The notes under the pieces were generated by a model. The model had not been told where the DNA came from. It was given only the letters and a program-made list of their open reading frames with translations, and did not search any database. DNA of 60,890 bases. It comes from a virus. Lineage: Duplodnaviria; Caudoviricetes. Below are positions 3,616-49,619 of the stretch, in pieces. The position numbers and the translations under genes were made by a program. The stretch spans positions 1 to 60,890 of the IMG/VR virus record IMGVR_UViG_3300037424_000169; one strand, given 5' to 3'. Position 1 is the first letter of the stretch. Each line of letters starts with the position of its first letter.

Positions 3616-4203
3616 ATGAACATTAAGCTTAAAATTTCACTTGCTGCTTTTTCTTTAGTTGCTTTTGCTGGTATTGCTATTGGCCAGAGTGGCCTTTGGC
3701 CTAATTTTCCTATTGTAGGTGGTAGCTCCTACAGTTGTGGTAGCGTTAACGGTGTTAGCAATTGTACTGTTCCTGCTGGCCCTACTGTATTAACTGGTAA
3801 CGAGACTATTCCAGCTAATACTAATCTTTCTCAGGGTCGTAGCCCTCAGAATGTGCTTATTAAACCTGCTAATTTAAATGCTAATCCTCTTACTTTTGTT
3901 ACCGTAACTACTCCCCCGGCTGGCATTAGCGCTTCTAATATAGAAGGCGGAGTTGTTTATACATCATCCACTACTATTACTTCTGCTAATGTTACACTTC
4001 CAGCTAGTGCAATTAATGGCCAGCAGTACCGTATTGCGTCTAATCGAACTATTACTACTTTAACTGTAGACGCTGCTACCGGCGATAGTATCGCAACTAA
4101 TAGCAATCCTACCTCTCTAACTGCTTCTACCACCTCACCTTCAAACTATAATTTTGTTTGTGATAAAACTAGCTTAGTTTGTGTTTGGAAGCGTTTACAG
4201 TAA
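3616..4203 (+). CDS. signal-peptide-bearing Ser/Thr-rich fiber/decoration-like protein
   Basis: N-terminal signal sequence, two Cys pairs, 'ANVTLPAS..NGQQYRI' fiber-like beta domain. Confidence 0.65.
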   Translation: MNIKLKISLAAFSLVAFAGIAIGQSGLWPNFPIVGGSSYSCGSVNGVSNCTVPAGPTVLTGNETIPANTNLSQGRSPQNVLIKPANLNANPLTFVTVTTPPAGISASNIEGGVVYTSSTTITSANVTLPASAINGQQYRIASNRTITTLTVDAATGDSIATNSNPTSLTASTTSPSNYNFVCDKTSLVCVWKRLQ

Positions 4204-4213
4204 GGAATAAAAT

Positions 4214-5329
4214 ATGGGTACGGTTTTAAATTGGGGAAACCCTTTACATAAACCGTACCCATTATTTTTATTAGGATTTGGAGTTATTACAGCTTACATA
4301 CCTGGAATTGTAGGAGCCTCTATATCTACAGGATGGTTATTTTTATTTATATACATTCCTTTTTTATTTTTATACTGTGATAAAATTCGATTTAGATTAG
4401 GATTTATTTTTATTTGTTATGTTATATTATCATTAGTTTGGACTGAAAATTTAAACATAGCTTGGTTTCATCTTTTACAATTGATTATATTAGCCTGTGT
4501 TTTTTGTGTAGGCCAAAATATAAAAGATATAAAACCTATATTTAAAGGTTTGGCATTAGGATTAGGAGTTTCAGCAACTATATCTATTTTTCAATACTTT
4601 GGTTTCTATGGACAAATTTATACAATCACTAAGTCGTTCGCCGGTTTTTTTATAAATCCTAATATATTTAGCGAAGTTTCTGCTGTTATGTTAATTAGCT
4701 TAGTTGTTTTAAAATTATGGTGGTGGATACCAGTTACTTTACCTGGGTTAATATTAGTTCAATCTAGAGCAGCTTATCTAGCGTTGGCTGTTGGTATTTT
4801 TATTTCAGTCTGGAAATATAATAGATATTTAGCATTTACATTATTTAATATAATAATAATTATAGGATTATATTTTTATTGGGATAAATTTAGTTTAGTA
4901 AGTTTTAAAGAACGGCTAGATATGTGGGCAGATACTATACAAGGATTTAATTTTTTTGGTAATGGGGTTGGTTCTTATGAAGTATTATTTCCTTACTACG
5001 CTACACATATAGATACTGAAATAGCTAGACCACGTTATGCCCACAATGACTTATTAAATATTATTTTTGAATTTGGTATAGCTTCAATTTTATTTTTAAT
5101 GGTTTTGTTTAATGCTTTTAAATCAAATAAATCAGAAGTCACCATTTTACTCACAGTTTGTATTATTTCGTTATTTACCTACCCTATGCATATACCAACT
5201 CAAGCTTTTATTGCTTTTTTGGTTGCGGGTTATCTTACTGCTAATATTACCTCTAACAGGGTTGTTTGGGATAATTGGGGATCAAATTTATTTACAAGGC
5301 TTAAAAGAAAGAAATTTTTTAAAGCTTGA
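4214..5329 (+). CDS. O-antigen ligase / O-oligosaccharyltransferase family membrane protein (Wzy_C-like)
   Basis: multi-TM; NPN, SRAA, 'ERLDMW', 'FFGNGVGSY' and 'AHNDLLNIIFEFG' motifs. Confidence 0.85.
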   Translation: MGTVLNWGNPLHKPYPLFLLGFGVITAYIPGIVGASISTGWLFLFIYIPFLFLYCDKIRFRLGFIFICYVILSLVWTENLNIAWFHLLQLIILACVFCVGQNIKDIKPIFKGLALGLGVSATISIFQYFGFYGQIYTITKSFAGFFINPNIFSEVSAVMLISLVVLKLWWWIPVTLPGLILVQSRAAYLALAVGIFISVWKYNRYLAFTLFNIIIIIGLYFYWDKFSLVSFKERLDMWADTIQGFNFFGNGVGSYEVLFPYYATHIDTEIARPRYAHNDLLNIIFEFGIASILFLMVLFNAFKSNKSEVTILLTVCIISLFTYPMHIPTQAFIAFLVAGYLTANITSNRVVWDNWGSNLFTRLKRKKFFKA

Positions 5330-5603
5330 GGTAGCTCGTTATTTTTTCCCATTTGAAAGAGAAATTTTAATTGGTCCTGCTCAATTTTACTTTAGAGAAA
5401 AGATTGCAAATGCTAATTCAGTATCAGTTTATAAAGATGCTTTAAAATATGATCCTTACTCTATTCAATTTTTAGGTGTAGCTATTCAATTAGACTACAT
5501 CTATGGAAATAAAAATGAAGCCTTAATAGGTAAACAAAAATTACAAAAAATAGGTCCAAATTCAAAAGTATTAAAACAGATTAACGCGAAAGGATTTAAA
5601 TAA
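5223..5603 (+). CDS. membrane-anchored TPR-like protein overlapping the ligase gene
   Basis: hydrophobic N-terminus followed by TPR-like 'YKDALKYDPYS'; start uncertain (TTG 5223 or frameshift). Confidence 0.55.
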   Translation: MRVILLLILPLTGLFGIIGDQIYLQGLKERNFLKLEVARYFFPFEREILIGPAQFYFREKIANANSVSVYKDALKYDPYSIQFLGVAIQLDYIYGNKNEALIGKQKLQKIGPNSKVLKQINAKGFK

Positions 5604-6013
5604 TGACCATTCCATCCGGCCCGGTTCCTTCTTTTCCTAACACCATAGGATTGCAAGACGGTAAATCTTTAAATAGGCTCGCTCAATTAATGGGGTCAGT
5701 CCAAAATGGGATTACGGCTCAAGCTGACGGAACTAAAGCTAACGCTACTCAGATTACAGGCGTTAAAGCTCATGTAGCTACGTCTGCTGGCGCTGCTGAT
5801 AGCGTTTTACTTCCTCCTGGTTACCCTGGCTTAGAAGTGACTATTTTTAATGGTGGCGCTAGTAGTATTCAAGTCTTTGGTAGTGGGAGCGACACAATTA
5901 ATGATATTGATACTGACACTGGCGTAACTCAAAATAATGGCATATCTGCTGTTTATACTTGTTACGATGTTGTAGCCGGTGTTGGTATTTGGGGCCGTGT
6001 TCTTTCAGCTTAA
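5603..6013 (+). CDS. virion decoration-like protein (no signal peptide)
   Basis: Gly/Ala/Thr-rich beta protein, 'DSVLLP..GLEVTIFN...IQVF...DTIN'. Confidence 0.6.
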   Translation: MTIPSGPVPSFPNTIGLQDGKSLNRLAQLMGSVQNGITAQADGTKANATQITGVKAHVATSAGAADSVLLPPGYPGLEVTIFNGGASSIQVFGSGSDTINDIDTDTGVTQNNGISAVYTCYDVVAGVGIWGRVLSA

Positions 6014-6023
6014 GAGGTTTAAA

Positions 6024-6728
6024 ATGCAACGTCTAATTTTAGGAATTATCTTAGCGTTGGGCGTTGCTTTTAATGCTTCCGCTCAAATATCCCCACAATG
6101 CTATACTACTAATGGAAGTAACTGTATTAAAGTTGGCACTCCTGAAACTAGTACAGGGGCATGGGGGGCTTTACCTGTTGTTGGTACAGTATCCATTAGT
6201 AGTAGTTCGGTTGATGCAGTTGATGTGACAGGCATAGTTACAGTAAGTAATTTTACAGCATCGGCTTTACAAACTGCTAGTACTCCTACAATAAGTACTT
6301 CTAATTATACAGCCGGTAATTGTATTGGCGGATTTAATGCTGTAACTGTTACTAATAGCAATGGGCAGACTGGATTTTTAACTAATTTTACTGTTACTAA
6401 TATTAGCGGTGCTACTCCTACCCTCACTGTGTTTATTTTTGATAGTCAGCCTACAACATCAACTTGTACTGACAAAAGCACATTTTCTATAAGTGCTACT
6501 GATCTTGATAAATTAATAGCTACTCCTACTGCAATTACGTTAGCTGCTCCAACTAGTGTAACGTCGCCTTCCACCGCGTCTTTAGATTTTACACCGCCGC
6601 GACCGTTTGTTGCTGGTGGTTCTATTTCAAGCGGAGTTAAAACTATTTACTATGGAATAGTAACAACCGCAATTACACCTACGACAACTAACGGGTATCA
6701 TATTAGAATTGGCGCGGCATTGAATTAA
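6024..6728 (+). CDS. signal-peptide-bearing Thr/Ser-rich structural-like protein
   Basis: GAGG RBS; MQRLILGIILALGVAFNASA-Q; four Cys. Confidence 0.7.
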   Translation: MQRLILGIILALGVAFNASAQISPQCYTTNGSNCIKVGTPETSTGAWGALPVVGTVSISSSSVDAVDVTGIVTVSNFTASALQTASTPTISTSNYTAGNCIGGFNAVTVTNSNGQTGFLTNFTVTNISGATPTLTVFIFDSQPTTSTCTDKSTFSISATDLDKLIATPTAITLAAPTSVTSPSTASLDFTPPRPFVAGGSISSGVKTIYYGIVTTAITPTTTNGYHIRIGAALN

Positions 6729-8005
6729 TGAAAAAATTAAAACTATATCTATTTTCATTATTATTACTGTTGAGTAGTGGTTTTAATGCAAACGCATTTA
6801 CTGCTACTCAACAGACTGTTTTGTTTGGTAGTAGTTGCCCTACAATTGGAGGTACTTGTCCATCAATAAATGCTAATTTTACTACTGATAAATATTGGGT
6901 TGAGGGTGTTGGATTTGTACCTTTAACAAGTATTGTTTCGACTAGTAGGGCATCATCTGCTTTATCTCAAGATACTAATGGTACTTGGTATAGTTTTTCA
7001 GCTAATACATTACGTGTTACTAATAAGGGCGCGCTGATCGAGGAAGCGCGGACGAACAAGTGTACGAATTACAATGCTAATCCTCCGGCGTTGGTGGCGA
7101 TGGGCACTGCGGCGGCATTTAATGCTGCCGTGACGAATATTACGGCAGGCGCAGGAACTGGCACTCCCCTATTTGGGGTTGTTGACGATAGCGCGGCTAT
7201 CGCCGCTAGTGGTTTAGCGAATGTCTCCAATGGTAGAACTTACGTTATTGATAATACGCTTGGAACATCTGACTCAAGCTTAACTTTTTCAGGTGTCGCC
7301 GGAAATACTAATACTCACACAATTTCAGCTTACGGGCGAGTTATTGGTACTGCCGGAGCCAACAACAGAATTGAAGTTCAAGATACAACTTCAATAAGAG
7401 CGTCCTTTACTGGTACTACAACTTACACTCGCGTTAGTGCAAGCGGTGTTCCTACAGCCATAAGTTTGCTTCGTGTCCGCGCAATCGCCGGCGCTACTGT
7501 ATACGTCACTCTCAACCAACTCGAAGAAGGCGCATTCGTCACGTCGCCCATTGTGGTTGCTGGCGCTTCCGCCACCCGCGCCGCAGACGTTCCGCAGTTG
7601 ATCGGGCCTGCCTTGACGGCGGCGCTGGCTGCCAAGGCGGCGTTCTTTCAGACGAATGGGATGGCAAATTCAACGGCCCCTAGACCTATTGATAGCTCCA
7701 CCGGGCGCATTCAATTTGACAGCACAACTGTTGTAGATGCTGTAATCGGAGCCAACACAGCGCCTGCAACTTTAGGCGCGGGAACGAGCGCAGGCACAGT
7801 AAAATTTGCTATGGCATTTGATGCTATCAACTTTAGCATGGTGGCAAACGGGGGAACGAAAGTAACTAATGCAAATGCTTTTAGTTTTACGGGCGCGGTA
7901 TACTTAGGAACAAATTTGGCCGCTACTCGTATTATTAACGGCTACATGCAGCGCTTCGCGTTCAGCCCGGTGAAGGGCGTCTTTGACGGAGCTACTAGAC
8001 CATGA
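6728..8005 (+). CDS. signal-peptide-bearing head-spike/fiber-like protein
   Basis: signal ending ANA; 'GALIEEARTN' and 'QLEEGAFVTSPI...ATRAAD' motifs seen in phage/GTA fiber proteins. Confidence 0.7.
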   Translation: MKKLKLYLFSLLLLLSSGFNANAFTATQQTVLFGSSCPTIGGTCPSINANFTTDKYWVEGVGFVPLTSIVSTSRASSALSQDTNGTWYSFSANTLRVTNKGALIEEARTNKCTNYNANPPALVAMGTAAAFNAAVTNITAGAGTGTPLFGVVDDSAAIAASGLANVSNGRTYVIDNTLGTSDSSLTFSGVAGNTNTHTISAYGRVIGTAGANNRIEVQDTTSIRASFTGTTTYTRVSASGVPTAISLLRVRAIAGATVYVTLNQLEEGAFVTSPIVVAGASATRAADVPQLIGPALTAALAAKAAFFQTNGMANSTAPRPIDSSTGRIQFDSTTVVDAVIGANTAPATLGAGTSAGTVKFAMAFDAINFSMVANGGTKVTNANAFSFTGAVYLGTNLAATRIINGYMQRFAFSPVKGVFDGATRP

Positions 8006-8475
8006 AACTCGCCTCCGCACTAACTGCGTCCTTAGTGCTTTTTAGTGCTGTTGCTCATGCTGCACGTGCTGATCAATTTGATTGTATTTTTAAATGGGAT
8101 ACAGTGATTGATGCTAGAGCGGATGTTAAAATGCTTGCTCACTCTATACTAGATGATCAAGGTGTTAGGCAGTTTGTTCAAGACCATGTAATTTCTAATA
8201 TTAAAGTTTGGCGAGCCAGCCAAGATACAGTTGATATTTCTGGTGATACTTTACATAATTACTTACCTGGTTTTTTTGCTTTAATTTCAGTAGATCATAG
8301 GATACCTGTTTTAGAAAATGATCCAGCTTTACAAGTTTGTGTTAATAGAGATAAAATGAACGCTGGTCAAACTCCGTATCTTTTCCTTTCTTCATATTCT
8401 GCTGCGATTTTAAAAGATATTCGTTTTGCTCCTATCTATATGGGAGCTAATTTTCCATTTGGAAGCTTACAATGA
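8002..8475 (+). CDS. exported hypothetical protein
   Basis: MKLASALTASLVLFSAVAHA signal; ATGA overlap. Confidence 0.65.
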   Translation: MKLASALTASLVLFSAVAHAARADQFDCIFKWDTVIDARADVKMLAHSILDDQGVRQFVQDHVISNIKVWRASQDTVDISGDTLHNYLPGFFALISVDHRIPVLENDPALQVCVNRDKMNAGQTPYLFLSSYSAAILKDIRFAPIYMGANFPFGSLQ

Positions 8476-19577: not shown

Positions 19578-20552
19578 GTGACTACGACAGCACGCCAGCT
19601 ATGTACAGATAGCTTGCTTGAGGCTGGCGTGCTGGGTGTTGGTCAAACAGCATTAAGTGAAGATATTAATGATGCTTTTAATCGCCTTCAACGAATGTTG
19701 GCTACTTGGCAAAAACAAAGATGGCTAGTTCCTTCATTACAAGAATTTCAATTTGATGGCGACGGAACTAAATATAAAACAGTAGGGCTACGAGGGGATA
19801 TAAATATAATTCCTCCTAGTAATATTAAAGGTGGCTATGTAATTCAACGTAACACAGGGCAAACTCCTGTTAGTTTACCTTTAAAGCCAATATTTTCTTA
19901 TGAGGATTATATAAGAATTAGAGTTAAAGATTTAGCAAGTCTACCTACTTATTTCTTTTATACAAATGAATACCCACTAGCTAAATTATATCCTTGGCCT
20001 GTGCCAAGCTCACAATATGAACTTCATTTTATTTATCAAAGCCGTTTAGGTTTTGGCAGCACTATTTCAGCCGGTTCAATTACAACTGGTGGGGCTGCTT
20101 ATACCGATGGCCAATATGATGGCGTGGCTTTGACAGGTGGGGTGGGGAGCCTCGCTACAGCCGATATAACGGTTACTGGTGGCGTTGTCACGGTCGTGAC
20201 GCTTGCCTCCGGTGGCCAAGATTTCGCTATCGGTAATATCCTTACAGCCGACGCAGCGGACATTGGCGGCACTGGTGCTGGTTTCACTTGGACCGTATCA
20301 AATATCACAAGTAACCTCGATAGTGAAATCATAATGCCAGAGGAATATGAAGAAGCTATAATGTATAATTTAGCATTACGTGTTTGCTCTATGTATCAAG
20401 TACAACCTATGCCTCAAACTATGATGTTAGCTAAATCAGGATTAAATAATATCAGAAAAAATAACACACAGGTTCCTCAACTTCAAATGCCTGGGGCTCC
20501 TGGGGTTAGGTCTAGTAGAGCGTTTTCATTATATAATCCTGATAATAGGTAG
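19578..20552 (+). CDS. head-tail adaptor (P22 gp4 / tail tubular A-like) with inserted beta domain
   Basis: 'GVLGVGQT..EDINDAF..L..ML..W', 'LYPWPVP' and 'PEEYEEAIMYNLA' motifs. Confidence 0.75.
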   Translation: MTTTARQLCTDSLLEAGVLGVGQTALSEDINDAFNRLQRMLATWQKQRWLVPSLQEFQFDGDGTKYKTVGLRGDINIIPPSNIKGGYVIQRNTGQTPVSLPLKPIFSYEDYIRIRVKDLASLPTYFFYTNEYPLAKLYPWPVPSSQYELHFIYQSRLGFGSTISAGSITTGGAAYTDGQYDGVALTGGVGSLATADITVTGGVVTVVTLASGGQDFAIGNILTADAADIGGTGAGFTWTVSNITSNLDSEIIMPEEYEEAIMYNLALRVCSMYQVQPMPQTMMLAKSGLNNIRKNNTQVPQLQMPGAPGVRSSRAFSLYNPDNR

Positions 20553-20663
20553 GTAATGTATAATATAGTTTACACCAAATCTAATTTTAGTTCAGGAGTT
20601 ATTATTTATTATTGGGGAGATGAATTTGAGGATGGACCTAGCGATAGTTATCGGATATTTTAA

Positions 20664-22154
20664 ATGCCAGCCGTTAATTTATTAGGACAACCTTACGCTG
20701 GTAAATCTTTAATCGCTTCTGCGCAGCGAAGTATAAACCTTTATGCTGAAATCAATGAACTTCCTAAACAAGGTGTGCCTTCAACTAAACCTACTCCAAT
20801 CACATATTACCAATTCCCAGGTAATGAGTTATATAGTTCGCCTTTAGATGAAGGTAAAGGCCGCTGTATATATAGAACGTCAATTGGTACAGTTTATAAA
20901 GTAGTTGGTCCTACTGTATATTTGCTTCAAAGTAACGGGGTAATGGTATTTGTGGGCAGCATTCCTGACCGTGCTTCTCAAGTTTATATGGCTGATAATG
21001 GGTTAGCTGTAGTTATAGTTGATGGTAGCTCAGAAGGTTGGGCTATTGATATGTCCACTAATGATTTTGGACAAATTATTGATCCTAGCTTTTATGGGGC
21101 TGATATTGTTAAATTTTTAGATACATTTTTTGTATTTAATAGACCTGATACCAATCAATTTTATATTTCATTAAGTATGGTTACTTATGCGCTTCTTACT
21201 GCTGGAACATCATTTGATCCATTAGACATTGCTGCTAAATCTGGCAATGCCGATCCTATAGTTTCTCTTTTAGTAATTCAAAAAAACTTATGGCTTATTG
21301 GCGCTCTTACTACAGAGCCTTGGATTGGTACAGGCGCGGCAGATTTTTATTTTCAACAAATTCAAGGAACATTTATTAATCACGGTTGTATAGCCCCATA
21401 CTCTGCGGCTTCTATAGATGTTATTGGTTTTTGGTTGATGCAGGATTTACAAGGTAAAAATATTATAATGAGAACTAAAGGATATGATGTTGAAGAAGTT
21501 TCAACACCTTATTTAGTTTCTCAATTTAATACCTATAGCATTACAAGCGATGCTATTGGCATGATGCTCCAAATTGAAGACCATGCTTTTTATATTTTAG
21601 TATTTCCTACAGCTAATATCACTTGGGCTATGGAATTATCTACTGGTTATTGGTTCCAATTAGCTAAATGGAATACAGAGACAGGAGTATTTGATCGTTA
21701 CCGTGCTAATGGTGCTGCTTTTGCATTTGGATTTAATTTAATTGATGATTATGATACTGGTAAAGTTTATAAATTAAATCCAAATATTGCTACCGATGGT
21801 GGTGATAATATGAAATTTATACGAACATTTTTACATATGGTTGGACCTGAATTTCAACGTGTAATTTATAGAAATGCTAGTGCAAATATTGAGCCTGGGA
21901 CTTCAACTAAAGAAGTTGGTAGTTTAGATGACGATAATGAGCCTGAAATATTTTTAAGCTGGTCTGACGATAGAGGTAAAACTTTTGGCACCCCTATGTC
22001 GCAAAGTTTAGGAAGACAAGGTGAATTTCTAACAGACCCTCAATGGAATAGACTAGGAATGGCTAGAGACAGAGTTTTTAAATTAGAATGGAATGGTCCT
22101 GTTATCACAGCATTAAATGGTGCTTTTGTTGAAGCTAAACCTTTGAGAAGTTAA
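20664..22154 (+). CDS. tail hub / packaged DNA stabilization protein (P22 gp10-like)
   Basis: beta-propeller-like; 'WSDDRGKTFG...WNRLG.ARDRVF'. Confidence 0.85.
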   Translation: MPAVNLLGQPYAGKSLIASAQRSINLYAEINELPKQGVPSTKPTPITYYQFPGNELYSSPLDEGKGRCIYRTSIGTVYKVVGPTVYLLQSNGVMVFVGSIPDRASQVYMADNGLAVVIVDGSSEGWAIDMSTNDFGQIIDPSFYGADIVKFLDTFFVFNRPDTNQFYISLSMVTYALLTAGTSFDPLDIAAKSGNADPIVSLLVIQKNLWLIGALTTEPWIGTGAADFYFQQIQGTFINHGCIAPYSAASIDVIGFWLMQDLQGKNIIMRTKGYDVEEVSTPYLVSQFNTYSITSDAIGMMLQIEDHAFYILVFPTANITWAMELSTGYWFQLAKWNTETGVFDRYRANGAAFAFGFNLIDDYDTGKVYKLNPNIATDGGDNMKFIRTFLHMVGPEFQRVIYRNASANIEPGTSTKEVGSLDDDNEPEIFLSWSDDRGKTFGTPMSQSLGRQGEFLTDPQWNRLGMARDRVFKLEWNGPVITALNGAFVEAKPLRS

Positions 22155-22947: not shown

Positions 22948-23703
22948 ATGGGTAGATTTTCTTTAGATATTGAAGATTATACAGACCCGTTATTATGTAA
23001 CGCATGGGTAGCAACAGCTATTGTTGGTTCTGCAATTATTGGTGCGGGTACTAGTATTTATGCTTCTGGTGAAGCGGCTGATGCTCAAACGGAAGCTAAT
23101 CAGCGTGGTATTGATGCTCAACAGCGTATGTATAATCAAACGCGATCTGATTTGACACCTTACCGTGTAGCCGGTGAAGATAATTTAAAAGAACTTAATG
23201 CCAGAATGCCGGAATTAACGGCTCCTATTGAATTAACTCAAGATTGGTTAGAGAGTACACCTGGATATCAATTTACTAAAACTCAAGGTTTAAAATCTGT
23301 TCAAAATTCCGCTGCTGCTAGAGGATTGGGGGCTTCTGGTGCTGCTTTAAAAGGCGCTGCTACTTTCGCTACTGGTTTAGCTGATAACACTTATAAAACT
23401 CAGTTTGATGTTGCTAACATAAATAAAACTAATGCCTACAATCGTTTGAAAAGTTTGGTTGACACCGGGCAAAGTGCGGCTGCTCAAATAGCTACTGCTG
23501 GCACAAGTGCAGCTAATGCTATTTCTAATTTATCTACAGGACAAGGGAACGCGCAAGCTGCGGCATGGAATGCGGCTGGTGGTGCTATAGGTAACGCTGC
23601 AAATAATATTGGTGGATATGTTGCGTATCGTGGACTTTACGGAGGGAGTGGAAATAATTCTTATAGCAATCCTCCAACTGGGAACGAATGGTATAATACA
23701 TGA
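22948..23703 (+). CDS. DNA ejection protein (P22 gp7-like)
   Basis: Ala/Gly-rich; 'PGYQF..QG...NSAAARG..SGAALK'. Confidence 0.8.
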   Translation: MGRFSLDIEDYTDPLLCNAWVATAIVGSAIIGAGTSIYASGEAADAQTEANQRGIDAQQRMYNQTRSDLTPYRVAGEDNLKELNARMPELTAPIELTQDWLESTPGYQFTKTQGLKSVQNSAAARGLGASGAALKGAATFATGLADNTYKTQFDVANINKTNAYNRLKSLVDTGQSAAAQIATAGTSAANAISNLSTGQGNAQAAAWNAAGGAIGNAANNIGGYVAYRGLYGGSGNNSYSNPPTGNEWYNT

Positions 23704-24329
23704 AGTCTGGAATTTATAAAATTTTAAATGTTGTTAACGGAAAGTGCTATGTTGGTAGTGCCGTTAATTTATCCATTCGTGAATACGAGCACAAGAGGCA
23801 ACTAAATAATAAAAATCACCCTAACAAATATCTTCAAGCCGCATGGAATAAATACAGCGGTTGGAAATTTGAGGTTAGTGTTTTAGAAAACTGTGAAGTT
23901 AATAAGCTAATAGAACGTGAGCAATTTTATATTGATTTATATGATTGTGTAGCACCAAAGGGATATAATTTGGCTCCTATCGCTGGTAGCCAATTAAATT
24001 TTAAGCATAGTGAAGAAACCAAAAAGATTATATCTAAAAAAGCTAAGAATATTTCTGATGAAACTAGAGCTAAGATGAAAGCTCATATTTTTTCTAATGA
24101 ACACAAAAAGAATATGTCTATCGCTAGACGTAAAAGAATTTATAAAGAAGAAACAAAAATAAAACATGCGCAAGCTGCTAAAAATAGAGTTTGGACAGAA
24201 GAAAGCAAATCTAAATTAAAAGCTTCTAAGCTTGGTCATAAAGTTTCTGAAGAAACTCGCTTGCTTATAAGCAAAACTTTAAAACTAAAAAATAGATTAA
24301 AATTTAAAGCTGAAATGATGGTGGACTAA
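23700..24329 (+). CDS. GIY-YIG homing endonuclease with NUMOD3-like repeats
   Basis: SGIYKI...YVGSA, 'REQFYID', repeated (H)SEET. Confidence 0.92.
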   Translation: MKSGIYKILNVVNGKCYVGSAVNLSIREYEHKRQLNNKNHPNKYLQAAWNKYSGWKFEVSVLENCEVNKLIEREQFYIDLYDCVAPKGYNLAPIAGSQLNFKHSEETKKIISKKAKNISDETRAKMKAHIFSNEHKKNMSIARRKRIYKEETKIKHAQAAKNRVWTEESKSKLKASKLGHKVSEETRLLISKTLKLKNRLKFKAEMMVD

Positions 24330-24330
24330 A

Positions 24331-25716
24331 ATGTCTGAAGTTGATACAAGCTCATATCTAAAACCAGCCGCCTTACCGGCTCAAAAAACTATTCTTGACC
24401 AAGTTGGACAATTCCAAAGTCTTGAGCGTGGTAATATTGCTTTAGGCCAAGATAAATTAAAACAATTAAACGATCAATTTAATGTTATGAATGCAGAGCT
24501 TTCTACTTTAGCTAATGACCCTAATGTTACTAAAGAACAAGCGGCTTCGCGTTTAATTACGCTTTCTAAAACTTTTGGGTTAAAGCCTGAAATTACTAGC
24601 CATATGATGAATGAATTAAATACTGCTCCTGATGTTAAAAGTTTTGCTCAAAATGCTTTAGTACGCGGTATGGCCGCTATGGAGAAAGTAAATAATTTAT
24701 ATGGTACGCCTTCTGTTTATAACCAAGGTCAGCAAGATACGCCAGTTAATGTAAGTCCTATGCGTGGTATGCGCCCAACTGGATTACCTATTCAACGTCA
24801 AATTCCGCCTACTCAACCTGTTATTGGTCCTGATGGTACTCCCGGTTTACAAGGTCCAATGGCTCCTGTCGCTCCTCCCGGTATCGCTACAGGACCGGGG
24901 CAAGACATACAGCCGCGCCCAATTAAAACTTTACCAATTGGCCCTATTAACAATCCTGCAATCAATGGCCAAAGTTCTAATTTTGGTGGAAATGTAATAG
25001 GCGCTACGGTTGAACCTGCTGAAACTCCTAATCAAATTGTAGGCAATCGTTTCCCGGCTGCTAGTGGCCCTGCTACTGGATATTCACCATTATTTGAAGA
25101 AGGTAAAAAGGCTTATACTGGCGATCAATTAATGGCTAGTCAAAAAATGATGGCCGCTAAACCTGCTATTCAAGCTTTACCATTGATGCAAACTCCCGGC
25201 TTTTTATCTGGTCCTTTAACAGACCAATTTACCAAAGTAGTAGCTGGTCTTAAATCTACAGGTTTAATTGATATAGATGAAAATTCTGATCCTACTGCTA
25301 TTAGACAAGACGTTGTAAAAAAATTAGCTCAGTATGTTTCTAACAATCCAATTGGACAACGATCTGATGCCGCTCAAACTTTAAGAGAAGCAGCAAGTCC
25401 TAATCCTAATGTTCAAATTCTTCCTGCCTTAATTAAACTTACTAAAGACGCGGTTGCTTTAGATCGTATTGAGGCGGCTATGCCTAATGCGTTTAAAGGT
25501 AAAGACTATGAAGATTATTTAAAACATAAAGGTACTTTCCCTCAATCTATAGATGAAAAGGCATTTACTTTAGATTTAGAACCAGAAGAAAAAAGTAAGG
25601 CTTTAGTTGATAAAATGGCTAAGCAAACTAAATCTAAAAATAATCGTGAACGCATGGAAGCTGAAAAATTCTTTAGATCATTAGCTATTGCGGATAACCA
25701 AGGGTTTTATAAGTAA
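24331..25716 (+). CDS. putative DNA ejection / internal virion protein
   Basis: position after gp7-like gene; Pro/Gln-rich with helical C-terminus. Confidence 0.6.
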   Translation: MSEVDTSSYLKPAALPAQKTILDQVGQFQSLERGNIALGQDKLKQLNDQFNVMNAELSTLANDPNVTKEQAASRLITLSKTFGLKPEITSHMMNELNTAPDVKSFAQNALVRGMAAMEKVNNLYGTPSVYNQGQQDTPVNVSPMRGMRPTGLPIQRQIPPTQPVIGPDGTPGLQGPMAPVAPPGIATGPGQDIQPRPIKTLPIGPINNPAINGQSSNFGGNVIGATVEPAETPNQIVGNRFPAASGPATGYSPLFEEGKKAYTGDQLMASQKMMAAKPAIQALPLMQTPGFLSGPLTDQFTKVVAGLKSTGLIDIDENSDPTAIRQDVVKKLAQYVSNNPIGQRSDAAQTLREAASPNPNVQILPALIKLTKDAVALDRIEAAMPNAFKGKDYEDYLKHKGTFPQSIDEKAFTLDLEPEEKSKALVDKMAKQTKSKNNRERMEAEKFFRSLAIADNQGFYK

Positions 25717-27623
25717 TGCCTACAGTAGAAGATTTAGCTTCTAAATATGGTAGTGGTGACGCGAATGGAGCGATTATAACTCCTCATGCTGATTTAATTA
25801 ATAAGTATGGTAGCGGTACTGTTGAAACTAAATCTTCTGCTCAATCCGATATTAATATTCCGTCGCCAGAAAATTTTGAGCGTTCTAAAGTTATCGAAGC
25901 TGAAACTGTTAAGGCTAATGCTAAAGATTTTACAAAACTGCCTATAATTAGGCAAGGTAAAGAAATTATAGATTACGGAGTTAAAGGATTTAAAGAAGGT
26001 AGTGAATTAGCCGGTTCTGGTTACAGTGATATTGCTAGAAGTGCTCCTGCTAGTGGTGTTGGTAAAGTTATAATGGGGCATGGTATTCAAGCTTTAAATG
26101 TACTTCCTGTACTACCTGCTATAGAATTTGCTAAAGATAAATTAACTAAAGCTACAGGAAACCCCGGCTTTGCTGATCGTGCTGAATTAGTGGCAACTGG
26201 TGGATTACCAATTGCTAAAACAGTTAAGGTGATATCGGAACTAGCACCTTCTAGTCGTGCTGTTAAAACTATTGTTGATGCTATTGGTCCTGAAAATTTA
26301 CCTGCTGTTATTCAACAATTAAAATCTAATCCGCGTCTTACTTTAATGGACGTTGACCCTAATATACAGGTAATTAGTCAAGGATTAGCTGCTAAGCCCG
26401 GCGAGCCTAGAAATATTTTGGATAAGGTTGTTAAAGGTAGAACTGATACTAAATTAGATACTGTTACTGGTGCGATTGATGAAGCTATGGGCGCTCCCGT
26501 AAATGTTTTAGATAAAGTTGAAAATTTAAAAGCTCAAATTAAAGCTACAGGAAAAGAAATTAATCCAATTGTCTCTAGCGCAAATCCAGTTGATGTAAGT
26601 CCTGTCATTGCAAGTATAGACGCCAAATTAAAGCCGGGGGTTAATAGTGTTATTACTGTTGGCGAACCTTTACCATTAGGTGATATTGAAAAGAGTTTAG
26701 AACGAGTTAGAAATTTTATAACCGATGATTTAAAAAATAGAACTGATGCTAAAAGTTTACATGCTTTCCAATCATCTTTAAGAGCTAAAGCTGAAGATTT
26801 ATTGTCTAGTACAAGTGGTCAAGATAGACAGCTTGGGCGTGCGTTAATGGACGTGCGTAATCAAGTTGTAGGGGCTATTGATATTGCGGCTAGTGGTAAT
26901 TATCGGCCCGCATTATCTAAATACAGAGACGTGAATGATGTTGAGGACGCTTTTAAAAAAGGTCAAGCGGTAACTAAAAATAGGCTTGGTAATTTAGACG
27001 ATGATCCTAGTTATTGGGATAAATGGGTTAAGCAAGCTACTCCTGCTGAATTAGAAGCAGCTAGAGAAGGTGCGCGTTTATCCTATGCTCATCAAATGGG
27101 TTCTGTAACTAATGCTGCGCGTAAAGGTACTGACATTCCTTTAATTGAATTTAATAAAGAGAAGCTAGAACTTCTTTTCGGTAAAGCTGAAGTTGAAAAA
27201 ATGGCTAAGGCTTTAGCTGATGAAAAGAAAATAGCTGATACTAATTCAAAATTATTTCAAAATTCTCAAACTGCTATGCGTTTGTTAGGTGCTGATGCAA
27301 CTAAGGTTCGTCCTGATTATGAACCTAAATTTACTAGAACTATTCTACCTGTAGCTTTAGAAGCTGGTACGCTTTATTTAAGTGGAGGTAATATTCCGGC
27401 GGCTGGTCTAGCTGTTGGTTTTGCTTATCCTGCGGTAAGAAGTAAATTTACAAAAATGGGGCAAGCGTTGGACGCTAAAACAAATGTAGAAATTACTAAT
27501 CTTGCTGCTTCAGTTGGAGAAGCTAAGGAAACTTTAATTAAAGCTTTACAAGATCATATCCCTAAAGCTAAGTTATCGCTTGCTCAGAAATCCATGTTGG
27601 CGTTGCCAATCTCTAAACCTTAA
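25716..27623 (+). CDS. putative DNA ejection / internal virion protein
   Basis: large helical protein, third gene of the ejection block. Confidence 0.6.
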   Translation: MPTVEDLASKYGSGDANGAIITPHADLINKYGSGTVETKSSAQSDINIPSPENFERSKVIEAETVKANAKDFTKLPIIRQGKEIIDYGVKGFKEGSELAGSGYSDIARSAPASGVGKVIMGHGIQALNVLPVLPAIEFAKDKLTKATGNPGFADRAELVATGGLPIAKTVKVISELAPSSRAVKTIVDAIGPENLPAVIQQLKSNPRLTLMDVDPNIQVISQGLAAKPGEPRNILDKVVKGRTDTKLDTVTGAIDEAMGAPVNVLDKVENLKAQIKATGKEINPIVSSANPVDVSPVIASIDAKLKPGVNSVITVGEPLPLGDIEKSLERVRNFITDDLKNRTDAKSLHAFQSSLRAKAEDLLSSTSGQDRQLGRALMDVRNQVVGAIDIAASGNYRPALSKYRDVNDVEDAFKKGQAVTKNRLGNLDDDPSYWDKWVKQATPAELEAAREGARLSYAHQMGSVTNAARKGTDIPLIEFNKEKLELLFGKAEVEKMAKALADEKKIADTNSKLFQNSQTAMRLLGADATKVRPDYEPKFTRTILPVALEAGTLYLSGGNIPAAGLAVGFAYPAVRSKFTKMGQALDAKTNVEITNLAASVGEAKETLIKALQDHIPKAKLSLAQKSMLALPISKP

Positions 27624-27805
27624 TTTTAAATACCAAAATGGAGTTTCTAATTTCCACCAAAAATAAGAAGCTACAATTAGAATTGTAGGCATAAATATAA
27701 ATTTATGATATTTAAAAGTTATATACCAAATTGGTATTAAAATTAAAAGTATTGGATTACTTAAAGATATTAGGACTGTAATTGTTATGAAAAAAAACAT
27801 TGGCA
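27573..27805 (-). CDS. small antisense membrane protein
   Basis: hydrophobic ORF filling the AT-rich gap between ejection gene and tail fiber. Confidence 0.4.
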
Positions 27806-30495
27806 TTTTATTTACATTCCTAACTATCTTTGGTTTGGGAATTTTAATTTTCAAACCTGCAATAGCTCAAGATGCTAGTCTTTTACCAAATGCGGTTCAA
27901 CAATTTTTTGATAGTTCTGGAAAACCTCTTGCTTCTGGCAAAGTATATTTTTATGAAGTTGGCACTTCTACATTTAAAGATACCTACACTTCTTCAGCAG
28001 CTACTACACCTTATCAAAATCCAATTACATTAAATGCAGGTGGTAAACCCCCCGGTAGTTCTGGTATTTATGGTATTGGATTATATCGTCAGCTTGTTAG
28101 GGATAAAAATAATAATATAATTTGGGATGCTGTTACGGCTCCCGGTGGTGGCGGTGGTAGTACTCCTACTGATGTTGGGGATGGTAATTTAGTTGGTACT
28201 GTACTTCCTTGGTCTGGTTTAGTTGCTCCTAATCAATATACTTTTGCATATGGACAAGAATTAGCCCGTTCTACTTATCCTGAATTTTTTACTGCTGTAA
28301 CTCAACAGGCTAATGTTATTTGTAGTTCCGCTAGTAATATATTGACTGGTATTTCAGATACGTCTCAAATCCCAATTGGTGCAGATATTGAACTTTCATT
28401 GTGTGTTATAGCTGGAACTACTGTTATTTCTAAAACATCTTCAACTGTTACGCTTTCAAATCCATCTTCTGTTTCTATTAATACAGTTGCTACATTTTTT
28501 CCTTATGGAAATGGAAACAGGTCTACAACTTTTAATGTTCCTGATTTACGTGGCTATGTTTTAGCTGGTCGTGATAATATGGGAGGTTCTGCATCAAGTC
28601 GTTTAACTTCAACCTATTTTGGTTCAGATGCCGATGCTTTAGGAGCGGTTGGGGGCTCACAAAGTCATACTCAAACTATTTCAGAAATGGCCGCTCACGA
28701 TCATACCTTAACTGATCCGGGTCATAGTCATAAGATAGGTGGTAATGGAGCAGCACCTTCCGGCTCAAGTATTGCAACTATAACAAATTATAATATTAGT
28801 GGTGTTCAATATGATAGCCAAATTGTAGCCACTGGAATAACTATGGCTATAACTGGTGCTAGTGTTCCTTTTAGTATTGTACAACCTACTATAACTTTAA
28901 ATTATATTATTAAAATTACTCCTGATACTTCAACTTCTATTGCTACTGGTGTTTATTCTATCGGTGGTATGAGTGGTGTTATCAGTTGCGGTACTGGCAT
29001 ATTATGTACTGGAAATATTATAAATTTTAATGGTAATGTTTTGGCTGGTGGTTCAACAAGAAGTATTCAATTTAGAAATTCAGATGGTTCTTTTGGAGGT
29101 TCTGATAATTTAGTTTTTATTAGTCCTGATACTTTAACATTAGGTGTCTCTGGTTCAACCATGAATTTTGATATTTATGGTCTGACTAGTGGACGTGTTA
29201 GACAAAATGTACAAGCTGTTGCTGGTACACCAACTATTGTTTGGGGGAATGCAAGTGGTACTCCTGCTGTAATAGCAGCATTTCCATTAGAAATAGATAC
29301 TGTAACTGGTACTATTAATTGTGATACTTGTGCTACTGGTTCTTTAAATGGGCAAGCTTTAACTAAAATTGATGATACTAATATTACTTTAACATTAGGT
29401 GGTTCCTCAACTACTGCTTTATTAAGTCCGGCTTCTTTAACTTTAGGTTGGACCGGAACTCTTGCCGCTGGTCGTCTCAATAGTAATGTTGTGCAAGCTA
29501 TTACTAATGATACTAATATTACAGGTTCTATATCCGCTCAAAATCTAACTTTGGGTTGGACGGGACAATTAGCAGTTTCTCGCGGGGGTACTGGTTTATC
29601 CTCTGGCACTTCTGGCGGTATTCCTTATTTTAACTCAACCTCTACTATGGCTTCTAGTGGTGTATTAGGAGCTAACCAAATTGTGTTAGGTGGTGGTGCT
29701 AGTGCTAGCCCAACATCTTTAACGTGTGCAGCTTCTACCACTGTCGTTCATGGTGGTACCCCTCCTACTTGTTCTCAAATTGTAGCAGCAGATATTACTA
29801 CAAATACAATTACTAATTCTAATTTATCTCAAATTGGTGCAGCTACTATTAAAGGTAATCCAACGGCGTCAACAGCTAATACTCAAGATTTTACATTTGG
29901 TAGTTTAACCCAAACTATTAGCCCCGGCGCAACAGATTGGATACCAATTTATGATAATGCTACTGGTACAATTAAAAAAGTAAATGCTGGTATCATCGCT
30001 TCTGCTTCGGTTGCTGGTGTAAGTTCTATTGCTGGTAATACAGGTGCATTTACATTAAGCACAGGTATTACTAATTCAGCTAATAATATTATAGCTGATA
30101 TATCTTCTGAAGCTGATTTTGAAGCTGGTACGGCTAATAAATTGTTAGATGCTAATGTAGTATTTACTGCTGAAATAACTACAACTTATGGAACCACTAC
30201 AACTTTTGATTTTGATACTTTTATAAATAGTCAAGTTATTTTAACTGGTAATATTACTACAATGAATTGCAGTAATATGAAACAAGGTCAAGCTGGTACT
30301 ATTGCTTACATTCAAGATGGAGTAGGAAGTCGTACCGCTGCTTTCAATACCGGAACTTGCTCAACAGTTTTAAAATTTGCTAATGCTTCATTCCCAACAC
30401 TAACTACTTCAGCAAGCGCGATTGATATTTTATCTTATTCTTGCCGTAGTTCTACATATTGTGCAGCGGCTCTTTCTAAAGGTTACAATCCGTAA
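27787..30495 (+). CDS. tail fiber with N-terminal signal peptide and collar domain
   Basis: signal ...KPAIA-Q; virion-anchor 'QFFDSSGKPLASGKVYFY'; collar 'GNG..TTFNVPDLRG'; many Cys pairs. Confidence 0.85.
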   Translation: MKKNIGILFTFLTIFGLGILIFKPAIAQDASLLPNAVQQFFDSSGKPLASGKVYFYEVGTSTFKDTYTSSAATTPYQNPITLNAGGKPPGSSGIYGIGLYRQLVRDKNNNIIWDAVTAPGGGGGSTPTDVGDGNLVGTVLPWSGLVAPNQYTFAYGQELARSTYPEFFTAVTQQANVICSSASNILTGISDTSQIPIGADIELSLCVIAGTTVISKTSSTVTLSNPSSVSINTVATFFPYGNGNRSTTFNVPDLRGYVLAGRDNMGGSASSRLTSTYFGSDADALGAVGGSQSHTQTISEMAAHDHTLTDPGHSHKIGGNGAAPSGSSIATITNYNISGVQYDSQIVATGITMAITGASVPFSIVQPTITLNYIIKITPDTSTSIATGVYSIGGMSGVISCGTGILCTGNIINFNGNVLAGGSTRSIQFRNSDGSFGGSDNLVFISPDTLTLGVSGSTMNFDIYGLTSGRVRQNVQAVAGTPTIVWGNASGTPAVIAAFPLEIDTVTGTINCDTCATGSLNGQALTKIDDTNITLTLGGSSTTALLSPASLTLGWTGTLAAGRLNSNVVQAITNDTNITGSISAQNLTLGWTGQLAVSRGGTGLSSGTSGGIPYFNSTSTMASSGVLGANQIVLGGGASASPTSLTCAASTTVVHGGTPPTCSQIVAADITTNTITNSNLSQIGAATIKGNPTASTANTQDFTFGSLTQTISPGATDWIPIYDNATGTIKKVNAGIIASASVAGVSSIAGNTGAFTLSTGITNSANNIIADISSEADFEAGTANKLLDANVVFTAEITTTYGTTTTFDFDTFINSQVILTGNITTMNCSNMKQGQAGTIAYIQDGVGSRTAAFNTGTCSTVLKFANASFPTLTTSASAIDILSYSCRSSTYCAAALSKGYNP

Positions 30496-31229
30496 TGATA
30501 AAATTACTAGTAGTTCTACTTTTAATATTTAATGGAATAGCGCAAGCTAATCCACCCGGTACATTTCAACCTTTATTATTAAACACTAAAAACCCATTAA
30601 CAATAACTAATACAGATAGTGCTAGCCAAGCTAGTGCTTCTAATACTACAACATTTACTAATAAATTAATTGGAGTAGCTAACTCTGGTCGTCTAGTTTC
30701 AGCTTGTGTTGCATGGAGGTCTAATGGAACTGAAACTTTAACTTCTGCTACTATTGGGGGAATATCAGCAACAATAACTTTACCAAATCAGCAACAAACA
30801 CCAACTTATTTTAATGTAGCTATAATTAGAGCATTAGTACCAACTGGTTTAACAGCAAATTTTACATTAAATTATAGCGGAAATTTATCAGGTAGTGGTG
30901 CATATACAGCTATAGCTGTATATAGTATATTACCAACTAATTCGACTATTTCATCTGATTACGCTACTGGTACAGGAACTACATCAATCAGCCTAAATAC
31001 TGATGTTAATTTAGGGGGTGTAATAATGGCGTGTGGATTTAGTCAAGCGAGTTCCGCTCGCGGGTTTACAGGATTAACAAAAAATGGGGAAATAAATACG
31101 CAAGGATCGGATTGGATGCAATATGGTTCTGATATGTATTCTGTTGCTCAAGCACCAGTATCAATTACCGCTACCTCAACAGGAGGTAACCAATTTACTG
31201 CTATTTCCGCCGCATTTAATCCATTATAG
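30495..31229 (+). CDS. signal-peptide-bearing Ser/Thr-rich fiber-tip-like protein
   Basis: MIKLLVVLLLIFNGIAQA-N; TAATG coupling to tail fiber. Confidence 0.7.
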   Translation: MIKLLVVLLLIFNGIAQANPPGTFQPLLLNTKNPLTITNTDSASQASASNTTTFTNKLIGVANSGRLVSACVAWRSNGTETLTSATIGGISATITLPNQQQTPTYFNVAIIRALVPTGLTANFTLNYSGNLSGSGAYTAIAVYSILPTNSTISSDYATGTGTTSISLNTDVNLGGVIMACGFSQASSARGFTGLTKNGEINTQGSDWMQYGSDMYSVAQAPVSITATSTGGNQFTAISAAFNPL

Positions 31230-31239: not shown

Positions 31240-32019
31240 ATGCCGACTAAACAAGAAATTATAGATGCTCTTACAGCTATAAAAGCTACAAATGACAGCG
31301 TATCACAAAATCTTGCTACTCAAATTGCTACATTAGCTGCTTTGGTTTGCAATGAAGAACCGCCACCAACTCCACCAGAAGATGAAGATACATTATTTTC
31401 AGTTGAATTTAGCGGTAATGATGAAGCAACTATTGCTACTGATTTATCTATTTACGCAAGACCATTAGCATTTCTTGATAATGCTCATATATTAAATAAT
31501 AAACTATTGTTAGATGGAGCTAATGATTGTGTTAAAATCCCTTGGTCTGCTGATTTTCAGCGTGGCGCTGGTGACTTTACAATAGACGCCAAAGCTTCAA
31601 CAACTAGTCTTTCTGAAGCGAGAAGTATTCTTACTCAATGGCAAACTGGTGGAGATAACAACCGAGCATTTAGCTTAAGAATATCCAATGGTAAACTAGC
31701 TATGTCTGTAAATAGTGGAGGCATAAACTTTATTGAGCTTCTAGGAGCAACAACGTTACAAATAGGAATTGACTATGATATAAGTTTTGAACGATTTGGT
31801 TCACTAGCTACATTGTTCCTTAATGGTGTAGTTGATGCTCAAGCACAAATCAGTGGAGCAATGAATAATAGTCCAAGGTCGCTATTGATTGGAGGACAAT
31901 GGGGGAATGCAGTGGAAACACCGGGAAATATAAATGAAGAATTAATTGGTACAATAACTAAAGTTAGGTTTATAAAAAAGGCTGTTTATCAAGGTGAAAA
32001 TTTTATACCATCTTTATAA
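31240..32019 (+). CDS. LamG/ConA-like lectin domain protein
   Basis: 'LLLDGAND', 'GAGDFTID', 'LFLNGV', 'LLIGG'; start moved to the ATG after AGGAA. Confidence 0.75.
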   Translation: MPTKQEIIDALTAIKATNDSVSQNLATQIATLAALVCNEEPPPTPPEDEDTLFSVEFSGNDEATIATDLSIYARPLAFLDNAHILNNKLLLDGANDCVKIPWSADFQRGAGDFTIDAKASTTSLSEARSILTQWQTGGDNNRAFSLRISNGKLAMSVNSGGINFIELLGATTLQIGIDYDISFERFGSLATLFLNGVVDAQAQISGAMNNSPRSLLIGGQWGNAVETPGNINEELIGTITKVRFIKKAVYQGENFIPSL

Positions 32020-48790: not shown

Positions 48791-48991
48791 TTAAACTCCC
48801 ACTTGCTGTTCAATCTGCTTACGCATATACTGGCGTGGCTTTGACTGCAACGCACTACCTACAGCCTTACCAGCACGAATACGCATGTAGATAGTAATGT
48901 AGCTCAACTCAGGATGCTTCTTTTGAGCGGACTTAACAGCAGCTTTAATCGACTTAAACTTGATAGCACCAAACTTGATTTGCTTAGACAT
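48791..48991 (-). CDS. small basic HTH-like protein
   Basis: FKSI..A...Y.TIY.R; resembles 60443..60655. Confidence 0.65.
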   Translation of the reverse strand: MSKQIKFGAIKFKSIKAAVKSAQKKHPELSYITIYMRIRAGKAVGSALQSKPRQYMRKQIEQQVGV

Positions 48992-49614: not shown

Positions 49615-49619
49615 ATTCC

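Follow-up and report, generated by a model that had tools for sequence, protein, structure and literature searches.

A Sec-type leader on the tail fibre of an uncultured P22-type phage points to folding in the host periplasm

Where does the receptor-binding fibre of a short-tailed phage fold? To our knowledge all tailed phages studied so far assemble their fibres in the cytoplasm, as textbooks describe. A locus in the virus record IMGVR_UViG_3300037424_000169 puts this in question. The window analysed here is the whole record, a stretch of 60,890 bases with the rating complete, and its proteins typed the phage as P22-type with a short tail in PHROG and Pfam scans; judged from these genes, the 60.9-kb window holds the entire genome of a phage with a short tail and a P22-type head. 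Its tail fibre gene and the partner gene behind it (Table 1) both begin with a hydrophobic leader, and a sequence-only reading of the locus had proposed that the fibre matures outside the cytoplasm. A real, conserved leader and a paired-cysteine signature support that proposal, while cleavage of the leader is predicted. We conclude that the fibre and its partner most likely fold in the host periplasm, not in the cytoplasm.

The fibre does open, as had been claimed, with a putative signal peptide placed just before its virion-anchoring domain (MKKNIGILFTFLTIFGLGILIFKPAIA-QDASLLPNAV), and the coordinates, sequences and cysteine motifs reported for it were correct. The leader consists of an n-region, MKKN, with a net charge of +2, an uncharged hydrophobic core or h-region of 18 residues (residues 5-22, mean hydropathy 2.57), a length at the upper end for leaders, and a c-region, K-P-A-I-A↓Q (↓, predicted cut), which combines small residues at -3 and -1 with a helix breaker. 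All leader calls in this study were made with our own n/h/c rule and by comparison. By this rule the hydrophobic leader has the n/h/c layout of a Sec-type signal and is predicted to be an ordinary bacterial export signal, not an artefact. We rejected a signal-arrest-release (SAR) domain for the fibre N-terminus, as AIA↓Q comes after a strongly hydrophobic core, IGILFTFLTIFGLGILIF, which is not Gly/Ala/Ser-rich. A lipoprotein leader for signal peptidase II was likewise rejected for both fibre and partner, as neither has a cysteine near the cut.

Homologues were collected by two protein searches. A word-indexed search with fibre residues 1-135 gave 96 proteins, and the mature domain by itself, run exhaustively in HMMER, matched 13,277 cluster representatives at E<=0.001, of which the best 150 were taken. 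The homologue set comprised 211 proteins, 199 of them anchorable on the motif LLPNAVQQFFD..G.P and 12 without the anchor motif. A scan of viral contigs with the single protein retrieved nothing, and an alignment scan then yielded relatives. A tripartite leader stood directly before the LLPNAVQQFFD domain in 195 of the 199 alignable homologues, and leaders were found in nearly all of the best 150 of the 13,277 domain matches. The four misses were two proteins with short starts (P0086, P0092), one with a visible leader that fails the -3 rule (P0192) and one with another start (P0208). By eye, a leader was visible at the fibre start in 36/36 distinct relatives' loci with the domain motif.

This leader is conserved in character rather than in letters. 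Pairwise identity among 181 sequences was 0.15 over the leader vs 0.57 over the first 40 mature residues, while the family profile was positively charged at -34..-22 (mean +0.1 to +0.44), nearly uncharged (0.00-0.01) with a mean hydropathy of 2-2.9 in the core at -21..-12, and polar after the cleavage site. Leaders were 20-60 residues long, and the uncharged hydrophobic stretch covered 9 to 21 residues across calls, mostly 15-18. Residue -1 in the 195 leaders was A in 151, S in 27 and G in 17, and residue -3 was A in 107, V in 40, S in 20, T in 18, L in 8, G in 1 and C in 1; these residue classes are partly imposed by the rule, which admits small residues only, and only the dominance of alanine is informative. 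Because the sequence drifts while the charge and hydropathy profile stays, we interpret the leader as a signal peptide and not a structural helix: it is apparently kept as a physico-chemical pattern, which is how signal peptides evolve. The alignment scan also revealed a second lineage of leader-bearing collar-domain fibres (L031, L038, L043 and L048, in 48-50-kb contigs) that differ in their mature N-module (QNTTC.DRP.GD.SNACANTRF) and carry 6-10 cysteines. Since this lineage joins a leader to a different N-module, fibre export seems to have had more than one origin.

The leader could have been lost to a start codon further downstream. It had been noted that no in-frame Met bypasses the leader, and indeed the first internal Met is residue 265. 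A downstream non-ATG start had been named as a danger to the signal-peptide interpretation, and the 36 relatives' loci show no conserved alternative start: an in-frame ATG, GTG or TTG occurs in the 12 codons before the domain in 9/36 non-redundant loci, the positions vary, and no Shine-Dalgarno-like motif was found at any of these alternative starts in the 36 loci. In the window, AGGA lies 11 nucleotides (nt) from the fibre ATG, compared with 8-9 nt for other genes. Rfam models returned nothing over 27400-28000, and a promoter and terminator scan of 27300-28300 gave nothing above shuffles.

A second concern was that the hydrophobic stretch might be a by-product of an antisense open reading frame (ORF). 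Head-to-head with the fibre gene lies a small membrane-protein gene that recurs in 19 loci of relatives (17 different sequences, 70-86 amino acids (aa)), located there between the fibre gene and the last ejection-type gene. The proteins share the core FKFRNYIWMPTILILAAY..WK and match no Pfam family, and the codon-position differences of the gene (0.48/0.36/0.54) follow a coding pattern. We consider the antisense ORF, on this comparative evidence, to be a genuine conserved gene. Its conserved ATG at 27806 leaves it sharing only nt 1-20 of the fibre gene (codons 1-7, n-region), and the fibre h-region faces the 5' leader of the antisense gene. Relatives without the antisense gene keep the fibre leader (e.g. 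L004, L005, L008, L026, L042, L076). Because the overlap is limited to the n-region and the leader persists where the antisense gene is missing, the hydrophobic stretch does not appear to be an antisense by-product. On the minus strand, TTGAGC-18-TAAAAT at 27870-27841 stands at a suitable place for a promoter of the antisense gene, but it is a consensus match only. P22 likewise has an inner-membrane protein, SieA, whose gene stands between the tailspike gene and the last of the ejection genes (bioRxiv 10.1101/2023.08.15.553423); the likeness is one of position only, as SieA is described there as 162-164 aa long with three transmembrane segments, while the window gene encodes 77 aa and overlaps divergently.

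Exported proteins meet an oxidizing environment, and we therefore examined the cysteines. The fibre has 12, in six close sequential pairs (179/206, 401/407, 512/515, 647/662, 828/858 and 886/892): the short-range pairs seen earlier and two pairs more. The count in the mature fibre is even in 86/91 of the nearest homologues and in 181/188 full-length leader-bearing fibres, in which it ranges from 4 to 20. Within consecutive pairs the median spacing is 16 aa, with 990/1082 at <=35 aa, and between pairs it is 113 aa, with 122/901 at <=35 aa. As a control we counted cysteines in ORFs of at least 120 aa, dropping overlapping, duplicate and multi-membrane-segment ORFs and leaving out the window locus. 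Leader ORFs in the relatives' loci were 109 even and 27 odd with 1.4 Cys per 100 aa, and leaderless ORFs in the same loci were 120 even and 136 odd with 0.5 Cys per 100 aa. In thirteen leaderless fibres related to this family through the collar domain alone, cysteines number 0-4 and show no preference for even counts. Exported bacterial proteins favour even cysteine numbers (PMC7678975). We regard the even, paired cysteines, by these counts, as a signature of periplasmic disulfides that is missing from the leaderless neighbours.

What, then, is the protein that would be exported? Behind the leader lies a particle-binding domain that matched solved podophage structures in a phmmer search of the PDB: chains 9vyg_m/n/o, 'Tail spike protein' (E 1.4e-7, fibre residues 39-114 vs 12-86), and 7eeq_A, 'Tailspike head-binding domain' (E 2.3e-4, fibre residues 41-90 vs 13-62). 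The offset between the fibre and the solved chains is 27, the length of the leader, and chain residue 1 corresponds to Q28; since the two agree, removal of the leader would restore the native N-terminus. In the leaderless cultured relatives Pseudomonas phage PAE2, Rhodoferax phage P26218, Xanthomonas phage PBR31 and Shewanella phage X14, the tailspikes start MTQLLP.. or MATLLP.., and the domain begins 2-12 residues after Met1. The domain is 72-88% identical among the 20 best matches, while the whole proteins vary in length (497-1570 aa among homologues) and in their distal Pfam domains, which include beta-helix, SGNH, pectate lyase and S74. The collar region that follows scored 37.3 bits with PF07484 over residues 137-171 (cut-off 24) and matched phrog_8763, 'tail protein', at E 5.9e-27; NCBIfam gave nothing for the fibre. 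The gene itself occupies the tailspike position, after the Ad3, Hc3 and ejection genes, in the order found in P26218 and PBR31. Because the genome has one copy of the particle-binding domain, in a gene at the tailspike position, as the best-conserved part of the protein and with a collar domain after it, the fibre is predicted to be the hub-binding receptor-binding protein of this phage. The tail-hub genes at 19578..22154 are presumed to provide its docking platform; a leader census of the window ORFs flagged neither the Ad3-type adaptor nor the Hc3-type head closure.

The partner gene overlaps the fibre gene, its ATG sharing one base with the fibre TAA (ccgTAATGata). The signal peptide that had been proposed for it stood (MIKLLVVLLLIFNGIAQA-NPPGTFQ), but its cleavage site had to be corrected to AQA↓N, a position fixed by the homologue P0213 (...LAYA↓NPPGTFQPLLL). 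Only two homologues of the partner were detectable: the closer, P0213, has retained a leader and the same start of the mature part, NPPGTFQPLLL, and the more distant has no leader. By eye, a leader-starting gene follows the fibre gene, usually as the next gene, in 15 of the 29 relatives' loci that show downstream ORFs. Pfam, PHROGs and NCBIfam returned nothing for the partner, and its single-sequence structure prediction was unusable (mean pLDDT 37).

These observations suggest a route in which the gene at the tailspike position encodes a pre-protein that would be exported by the host Sec system. Signal peptidase I would cut after AIA and make Q28 the new N-terminus, which is the start of the particle-binding domain, and the fibre would then fold and trimerize in the oxidizing periplasm, where its six consecutive cysteine pairs could form disulfides. 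The 244-aa partner from the overlapping gene would be exported alongside it. Heads with portal, adaptor and hub would meanwhile be built fibreless in the cytoplasm, and the opening of the inner membrane by the holin, or lysis afterwards, would let fibres and particles meet and the N-domain dock on the hub. Export, cleavage and disulfide formation have strong indirect support from the comparisons above, whereas for docking after the membrane has been breached we argue by exclusion and from the parallel with P22, in which addition of the tailspike is the last assembly step and is possible in vitro. For the complete route, in which the fibre is exported, cleaved and disulfide-bonded and then, after the holin has opened the membrane, docks on particles assembled in the cytoplasm, we see about an even chance.

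Known systems share single elements of this route. The tailspikes of P22-type podophages (7eeq, 9vyg; PAE2, P26218, PBR31, X14) have the same N-domain, gene position and modular distal part, in phages with a related coat, but are leaderless; the window family adds a Sec-type leader of 20-60 residues and 4-20 paired cysteines. In the Cellulophaga phage phi18:3 (KC821620, Pachyviridae), gp085-087 are large late proteins (547, 785 and 559 aa) whose n/h/c leaders have the predicted cuts S↓Q, A↓Q and A↓Q, and the record's depositors annotated them as 'structural protein ... experimental MS/MS proteomics'. Among the experimental hints that could be checked, this is the only one that leader-bearing proteins reach particles, although phi18:3 belongs to an unrelated phage family with a Bacteroidota host, and gp085-087, with 0, 1 and 3 cysteines, lack the disulfide signature. 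In the filamentous phages (Inoviridae), g3p needs periplasmic disulfide formation. The g8p and g3p proteins of that family are likewise virion or receptor-binding proteins with cleavable Sec leaders (a general point in PMC4823517), but their particles leave by extrusion across the envelope, while the window phage has a lysis cassette and an icosahedral, DNA-filled head that would be built, with the tail, in the cytoplasm. The outer-capsid protein VP7 of rotavirus has a cleaved signal peptide, matures in a secretory compartment and is added last to a non-enveloped particle (PMC13043047, PMC13011347); the analogy is in logic only, as this is a eukaryotic virus whose particles bud into the endoplasmic reticulum to meet VP7.

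We know of no comparable VP7-like route in bacteria. Exported phage proteins that act in the envelope include the lambda Bor and Lom and T5 Llp-type surface proteins. Others of this kind are spanins, SAR endolysins, the T4 antiholin RI (PMC8385771) and the exported esterase gp40 of PBR31 (PMC10975493). All of these are accessory proteins, and none is a hub-binding receptor-binding protein of the virion; the fibre and partner of the window also differ from them in having no lipobox and a leader that is not SAR-like. Full-text literature searches found no paper on Sec-exported tail fibres of tailed phages, and the DsbA matches in PMC13412088 concern host receptors, not fibre export.

An exported fibre need not end up on a virion. 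It could instead act on the envelope of the infected cell, where it might bind, mask or destroy the receptor polysaccharide from the periplasmic side or at the cell surface, and so exclude superinfection and free progeny from debris, or aid lysis. Enzyme domains in the homologues (SGNH/GDSL, pectate lyase, beta-helix) would suit such a role, a Wzy_C envelope enzyme is encoded among the leader proteins of the window, and PBR31 encodes, next to its lysis genes, a leader-bearing esterase of the SGNH type that resembles tail-associated hydrolases (PMC10975493). We nevertheless find this doubtful. The gene stands where cultured relatives have their tailspike gene, behind the ejection genes, and its best-conserved part is the only particle-binding domain of the genome, which would be unexpected if a fit to the hub were no longer needed. 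Moreover, no other candidate for a receptor-binding protein on the hub adaptor was found in the window apart from the LamG protein and a leader-bearing head-spike-like protein. By means of an uncleaved signal-anchor, an exported fibre might also stay bound to the periplasmic side of the inner membrane up to lysis, to be released by proteolysis or membrane collapse or to dock while tethered. The subclade core of 17-18 residues with a mean hydropathy of about 2.6 would allow this, and tethering would concentrate fibres where holin holes open. Such an anchor is unlikely, however, given the Pro-containing c-region and small -3/-1 residues in 195/199 homologues and the agreement of the predicted cut with the native N-terminus of leaderless relatives and solved chains; in addition, 27 extra hydrophobic residues would be hard to fit on a hub-binding domain, and the segment lacks the Gly/Ala/Ser-rich composition of SAR domains.

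If the protein were not exported at all, the fibre would be cytoplasmic and its hydrophobic N-terminus would have a structural or membrane-active function, such as a trimer core or insertion into the host membrane during infection, and the cysteines of the fibre would bind metals or oxidize once it is released. This would agree with the textbook site of assembly, and large, trimeric, beta-rich fibres are demanding Sec substrates. A structural element should stay conserved, though, and the leader is only 15% identical where the mature start is 57%; a positive n-region, uncharged core and AxA-type end serve export and not a trimer core, leaderless homologues function without any such segment, and cysteine parity and pairing are limited in these phages to leader-bearing proteins. 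We consider a cytoplasmic fibre quite unlikely on these grounds. Still more weighs against an annotation artefact, in which the true start would lie downstream or the leader would be a by-product of the antisense ORF at 27573-27854. A real antisense gene does overlap the fibre start, and the AGGA-ATG spacing is slightly long, but the antisense start at 27806 leaves only 20 nt in common, the leader is retained in relatives without the antisense gene, and no alternative start has a Shine-Dalgarno-like motif, which makes such an artefact extremely improbable.

Several points count against the periplasmic route itself. The family is uncultured, and export, cleavage and disulfides are deduced from sequence statistics and our own leader rule. 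The subclade h-region, at 18 residues, has a length more like that of a membrane anchor than that of a typical leader. As some of the sequences behind the parity counts are related, p-values overstate independence; this is offset in part by cysteine counts that span 4 to 20 and by Cys-rich distal domains that differ. The phi18:3 precedent attests presence in a virion preparation only, for proteins with 0, 1 and 3 cysteines. Finally, fibres and particles could meet only in the short time from holin opening to dispersal, which looks inefficient at natural cell densities.

If the periplasmic route is correct, a further compartment, together with Sec, signal peptidase and Dsb, would have to be added to the all-cytoplasmic textbook scheme of tailed-phage assembly. 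Infectivity would depend on host Sec, LepB and Dsb, and the final assembly step would be tied to holin action and so coupled to lysis. The route would also explain the disulfide-stabilized, cysteine-rich fibres of some environmental phages, and fibres expressed for host-range or structural work would best be produced in the periplasm and without a leader artefact. The finding would mark a large uncultured clade, given the 13,277 cluster representatives of the domain search at E<=0.001. A broader version, in which a large group of uncultured P22-type podophages of ~57-61 kb build their particles in two compartments, with all outward appendages (tail fibre, partner, head-spike-like and other fibre-like proteins) Sec-exported, trimmed by signal peptidase, disulfide-linked and joined to the cytoplasmic heads only at holin opening, is possible but somewhat short of an even chance in our estimation. 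In some members a phage-encoded enzyme of the Wzy_C/O-antigen-ligase type may modify the exported appendages in the periplasm.

Further genes of the window point in the same direction. The fibre locus had been placed about 20 kb from a 'ligase cassette'; this cassette, a second export locus, lies at 3616-8475, about 23 kb upstream. One of its leader-bearing proteins (6728-8005) matched NF048003, 'phage head spike fiber domain', of the gene transfer agent (GTA) type, and phrog_5939, 'tail protein', and a cassette protein of one relative has the fibre-typical endosialidase-chaperone domain. A Wzy_C gene was present in 2/5 complete relatives. Similar leader-protein cassettes lie in the relatives G001 (2412-10484) and G003 (47800-56063). 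The leader census flagged 12/79 window ORFs, about 10 of them credible by eye, and 16/67, 11/76, 10/73, 10/77 and 5/97 in five complete relatives; the leaderless cultured relatives gave 1/42 (P26218) and 6/50 (PAE2), several of the PAE2 calls looking like chance ORFs. With the window and its relatives rich in large leader-bearing proteins, several of them fibre-like, the description of a genome-wide export strategy seems fair. Pfam scans turned up no phage-encoded Dsb, signal peptidase or chaperone.

Table 1. Positions of the fibre locus, the export cassette and other genes in the window
Feature	Position	Strand	Evidence or remark
Fibre gene, 902 aa	27787-30495	+	ATG start
Fibre leader, 27 codons, predicted signal-peptidase I site AIA↓Q	27787..27867	+	sequence and homologue comparison
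Particle-binding (head-binding) N-domain, residues 28-135	27868..28191	+	PDB phmmer
Phage tail collar region, residues about 137-379, invariant pair C179/C206	28195..28923	+	PF07484, phrog_8763
Variable distal receptor-side part, five further close Cys pairs	28924..30495	+	cysteine positions, homologue comparison
Partner, 244 aa, predicted leader MIKLLVVLLLIFNGIAQA↓N, 2 cysteines in mature part	30495-31229	+	
Conserved small membrane-protein gene, 77 aa, head-to-head with fibre gene	27573..27806	-	comparative
Small terminase	starts 3012		PHROG/Pfam scans
Export cassette between small and large terminase genes	3616..8475	+	leaders, Wzy_C
Leader-bearing cassette proteins	3616-4203, 6024-6728, 6728-8005, 8002-8475	+	4, 4, 3, 2 cysteines
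Wzy_C (O-antigen-ligase family) membrane protein	4214-5329	+	PF04932, E 1.1e-9
Large terminase	starts 8504		PHROG/Pfam scans
Portal	starts 9961		PHROG/Pfam scans
Scaffold-like gene	starts 16271		PHROG/Pfam scans
Coat	starts 17397		PHROG/Pfam scans
Ad3-type adaptor, leaderless tail-hub gene	19578-20552	+	phrog_637/phrog_578 evidence (hub pair)
Hc3-type head closure, leaderless tail-hub gene	20664-22154	+	phrog_637/phrog_578 evidence (hub pair)
Ejection-protein-type genes directly 5' of fibre gene	22948..27623	+	phrog_598 'DNA ejection', phrog_5880
Homing-endonuclease gene inserted among ejection genes	23700-24329		
LamG-type protein	31240-32019		Pfam/PHROG
Endolysin, Amidase_2+SH3_3, leaderless	32034-32897	+	
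Holin-like membrane protein	32900-33259	+	
Lipobox lipoprotein, LAG↓C	33270-33596	+	

Two kinds of small exported proteins were also observed. A twin-arginine-type leader (RRSFLLGLGS..AAPAIV) begins a small protein at 58069-58332 (+) and is kept in G002 (35302-35529, -) and G001 (20290-20772, +); the product may be a phage protein exported by the twin-arginine (Tat) system. Leader-bearing mini-proteins of ~73-86 aa occur at 221-451 (+) in the window and in L016 (12544-12774), L021 (8660-8881), L036 (5683-5928) and L025 (9049-9309), several with similar mature starts (Q..EY.VKLT.EE..). They lie by the fibre or lysis genes in the relatives and at the left end in the window.

The lysis genes bear on both the mechanism and the host. 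With a leaderless endolysin, the holin would be expected to form holes. In most relatives a lipobox lipoprotein is encoded after the lysis genes, and an outer-membrane beta-barrel gene of the PF13505 type, with a leader, lies just past the lysis genes in one relative (L005:10962-11690) and similarly in L008 and L058. Because lipobox lipoproteins follow the endolysin and holin genes and a relative encodes an outer-membrane beta-barrel, the hosts are predicted to be diderm. Atlas look-ups bearing on the host gave only 'viruses / Wzy_C bacteria' and, for the barrel gene of the relative, OMP_b-brl from Pseudomonadota or Verrucomicrobiota. An alignment of the fibre against the genomes of 185,579 species gave no relative, so that neither prophage copies nor the name of a host came from it. 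Gln at +1, the 'Q-rule', is a pointer to a Bacteroidota host. This assignment was weakened by AGGA/AAGG/GAGG-type motifs before 34/59 genes and by relatives with the same coat and N-domain that infect Proteobacteria.

The G+C content of the window is 32-44% in 2-kb windows, and the replication genes lie on the opposite strand. Among sequencing runs, one DNA run from a sediment metagenome, possibly the source, contained the sequence, and no RNA run was listed for it. The order of the ejection genes at 22948..27623 is as in cultured relatives, with synteny to P26218_27/26 and to the PBR31 internal protein C and tail spike. Mobile-nuclease signatures are plentiful (12227-15424, 18693-19358, 23700-24329, 34471-35016, 38557-39018), three of them in genes of the endonuclease-VII/HNH type, and a LAGLIDADG segment lies inside the 1065-aa post-portal protein (12227-15424). 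ARAGORN placed a tRNA-Met at 46891-46965 (+), within the ORF of a 782-aa primase (46020-48368), and an encoded CCA ends all four predicted tRNAs of the window. A 105-aa protein at 49064-49381 (-) has a ribosomal L7/L12 C-terminal domain (PF00542, E 2.9e-8).

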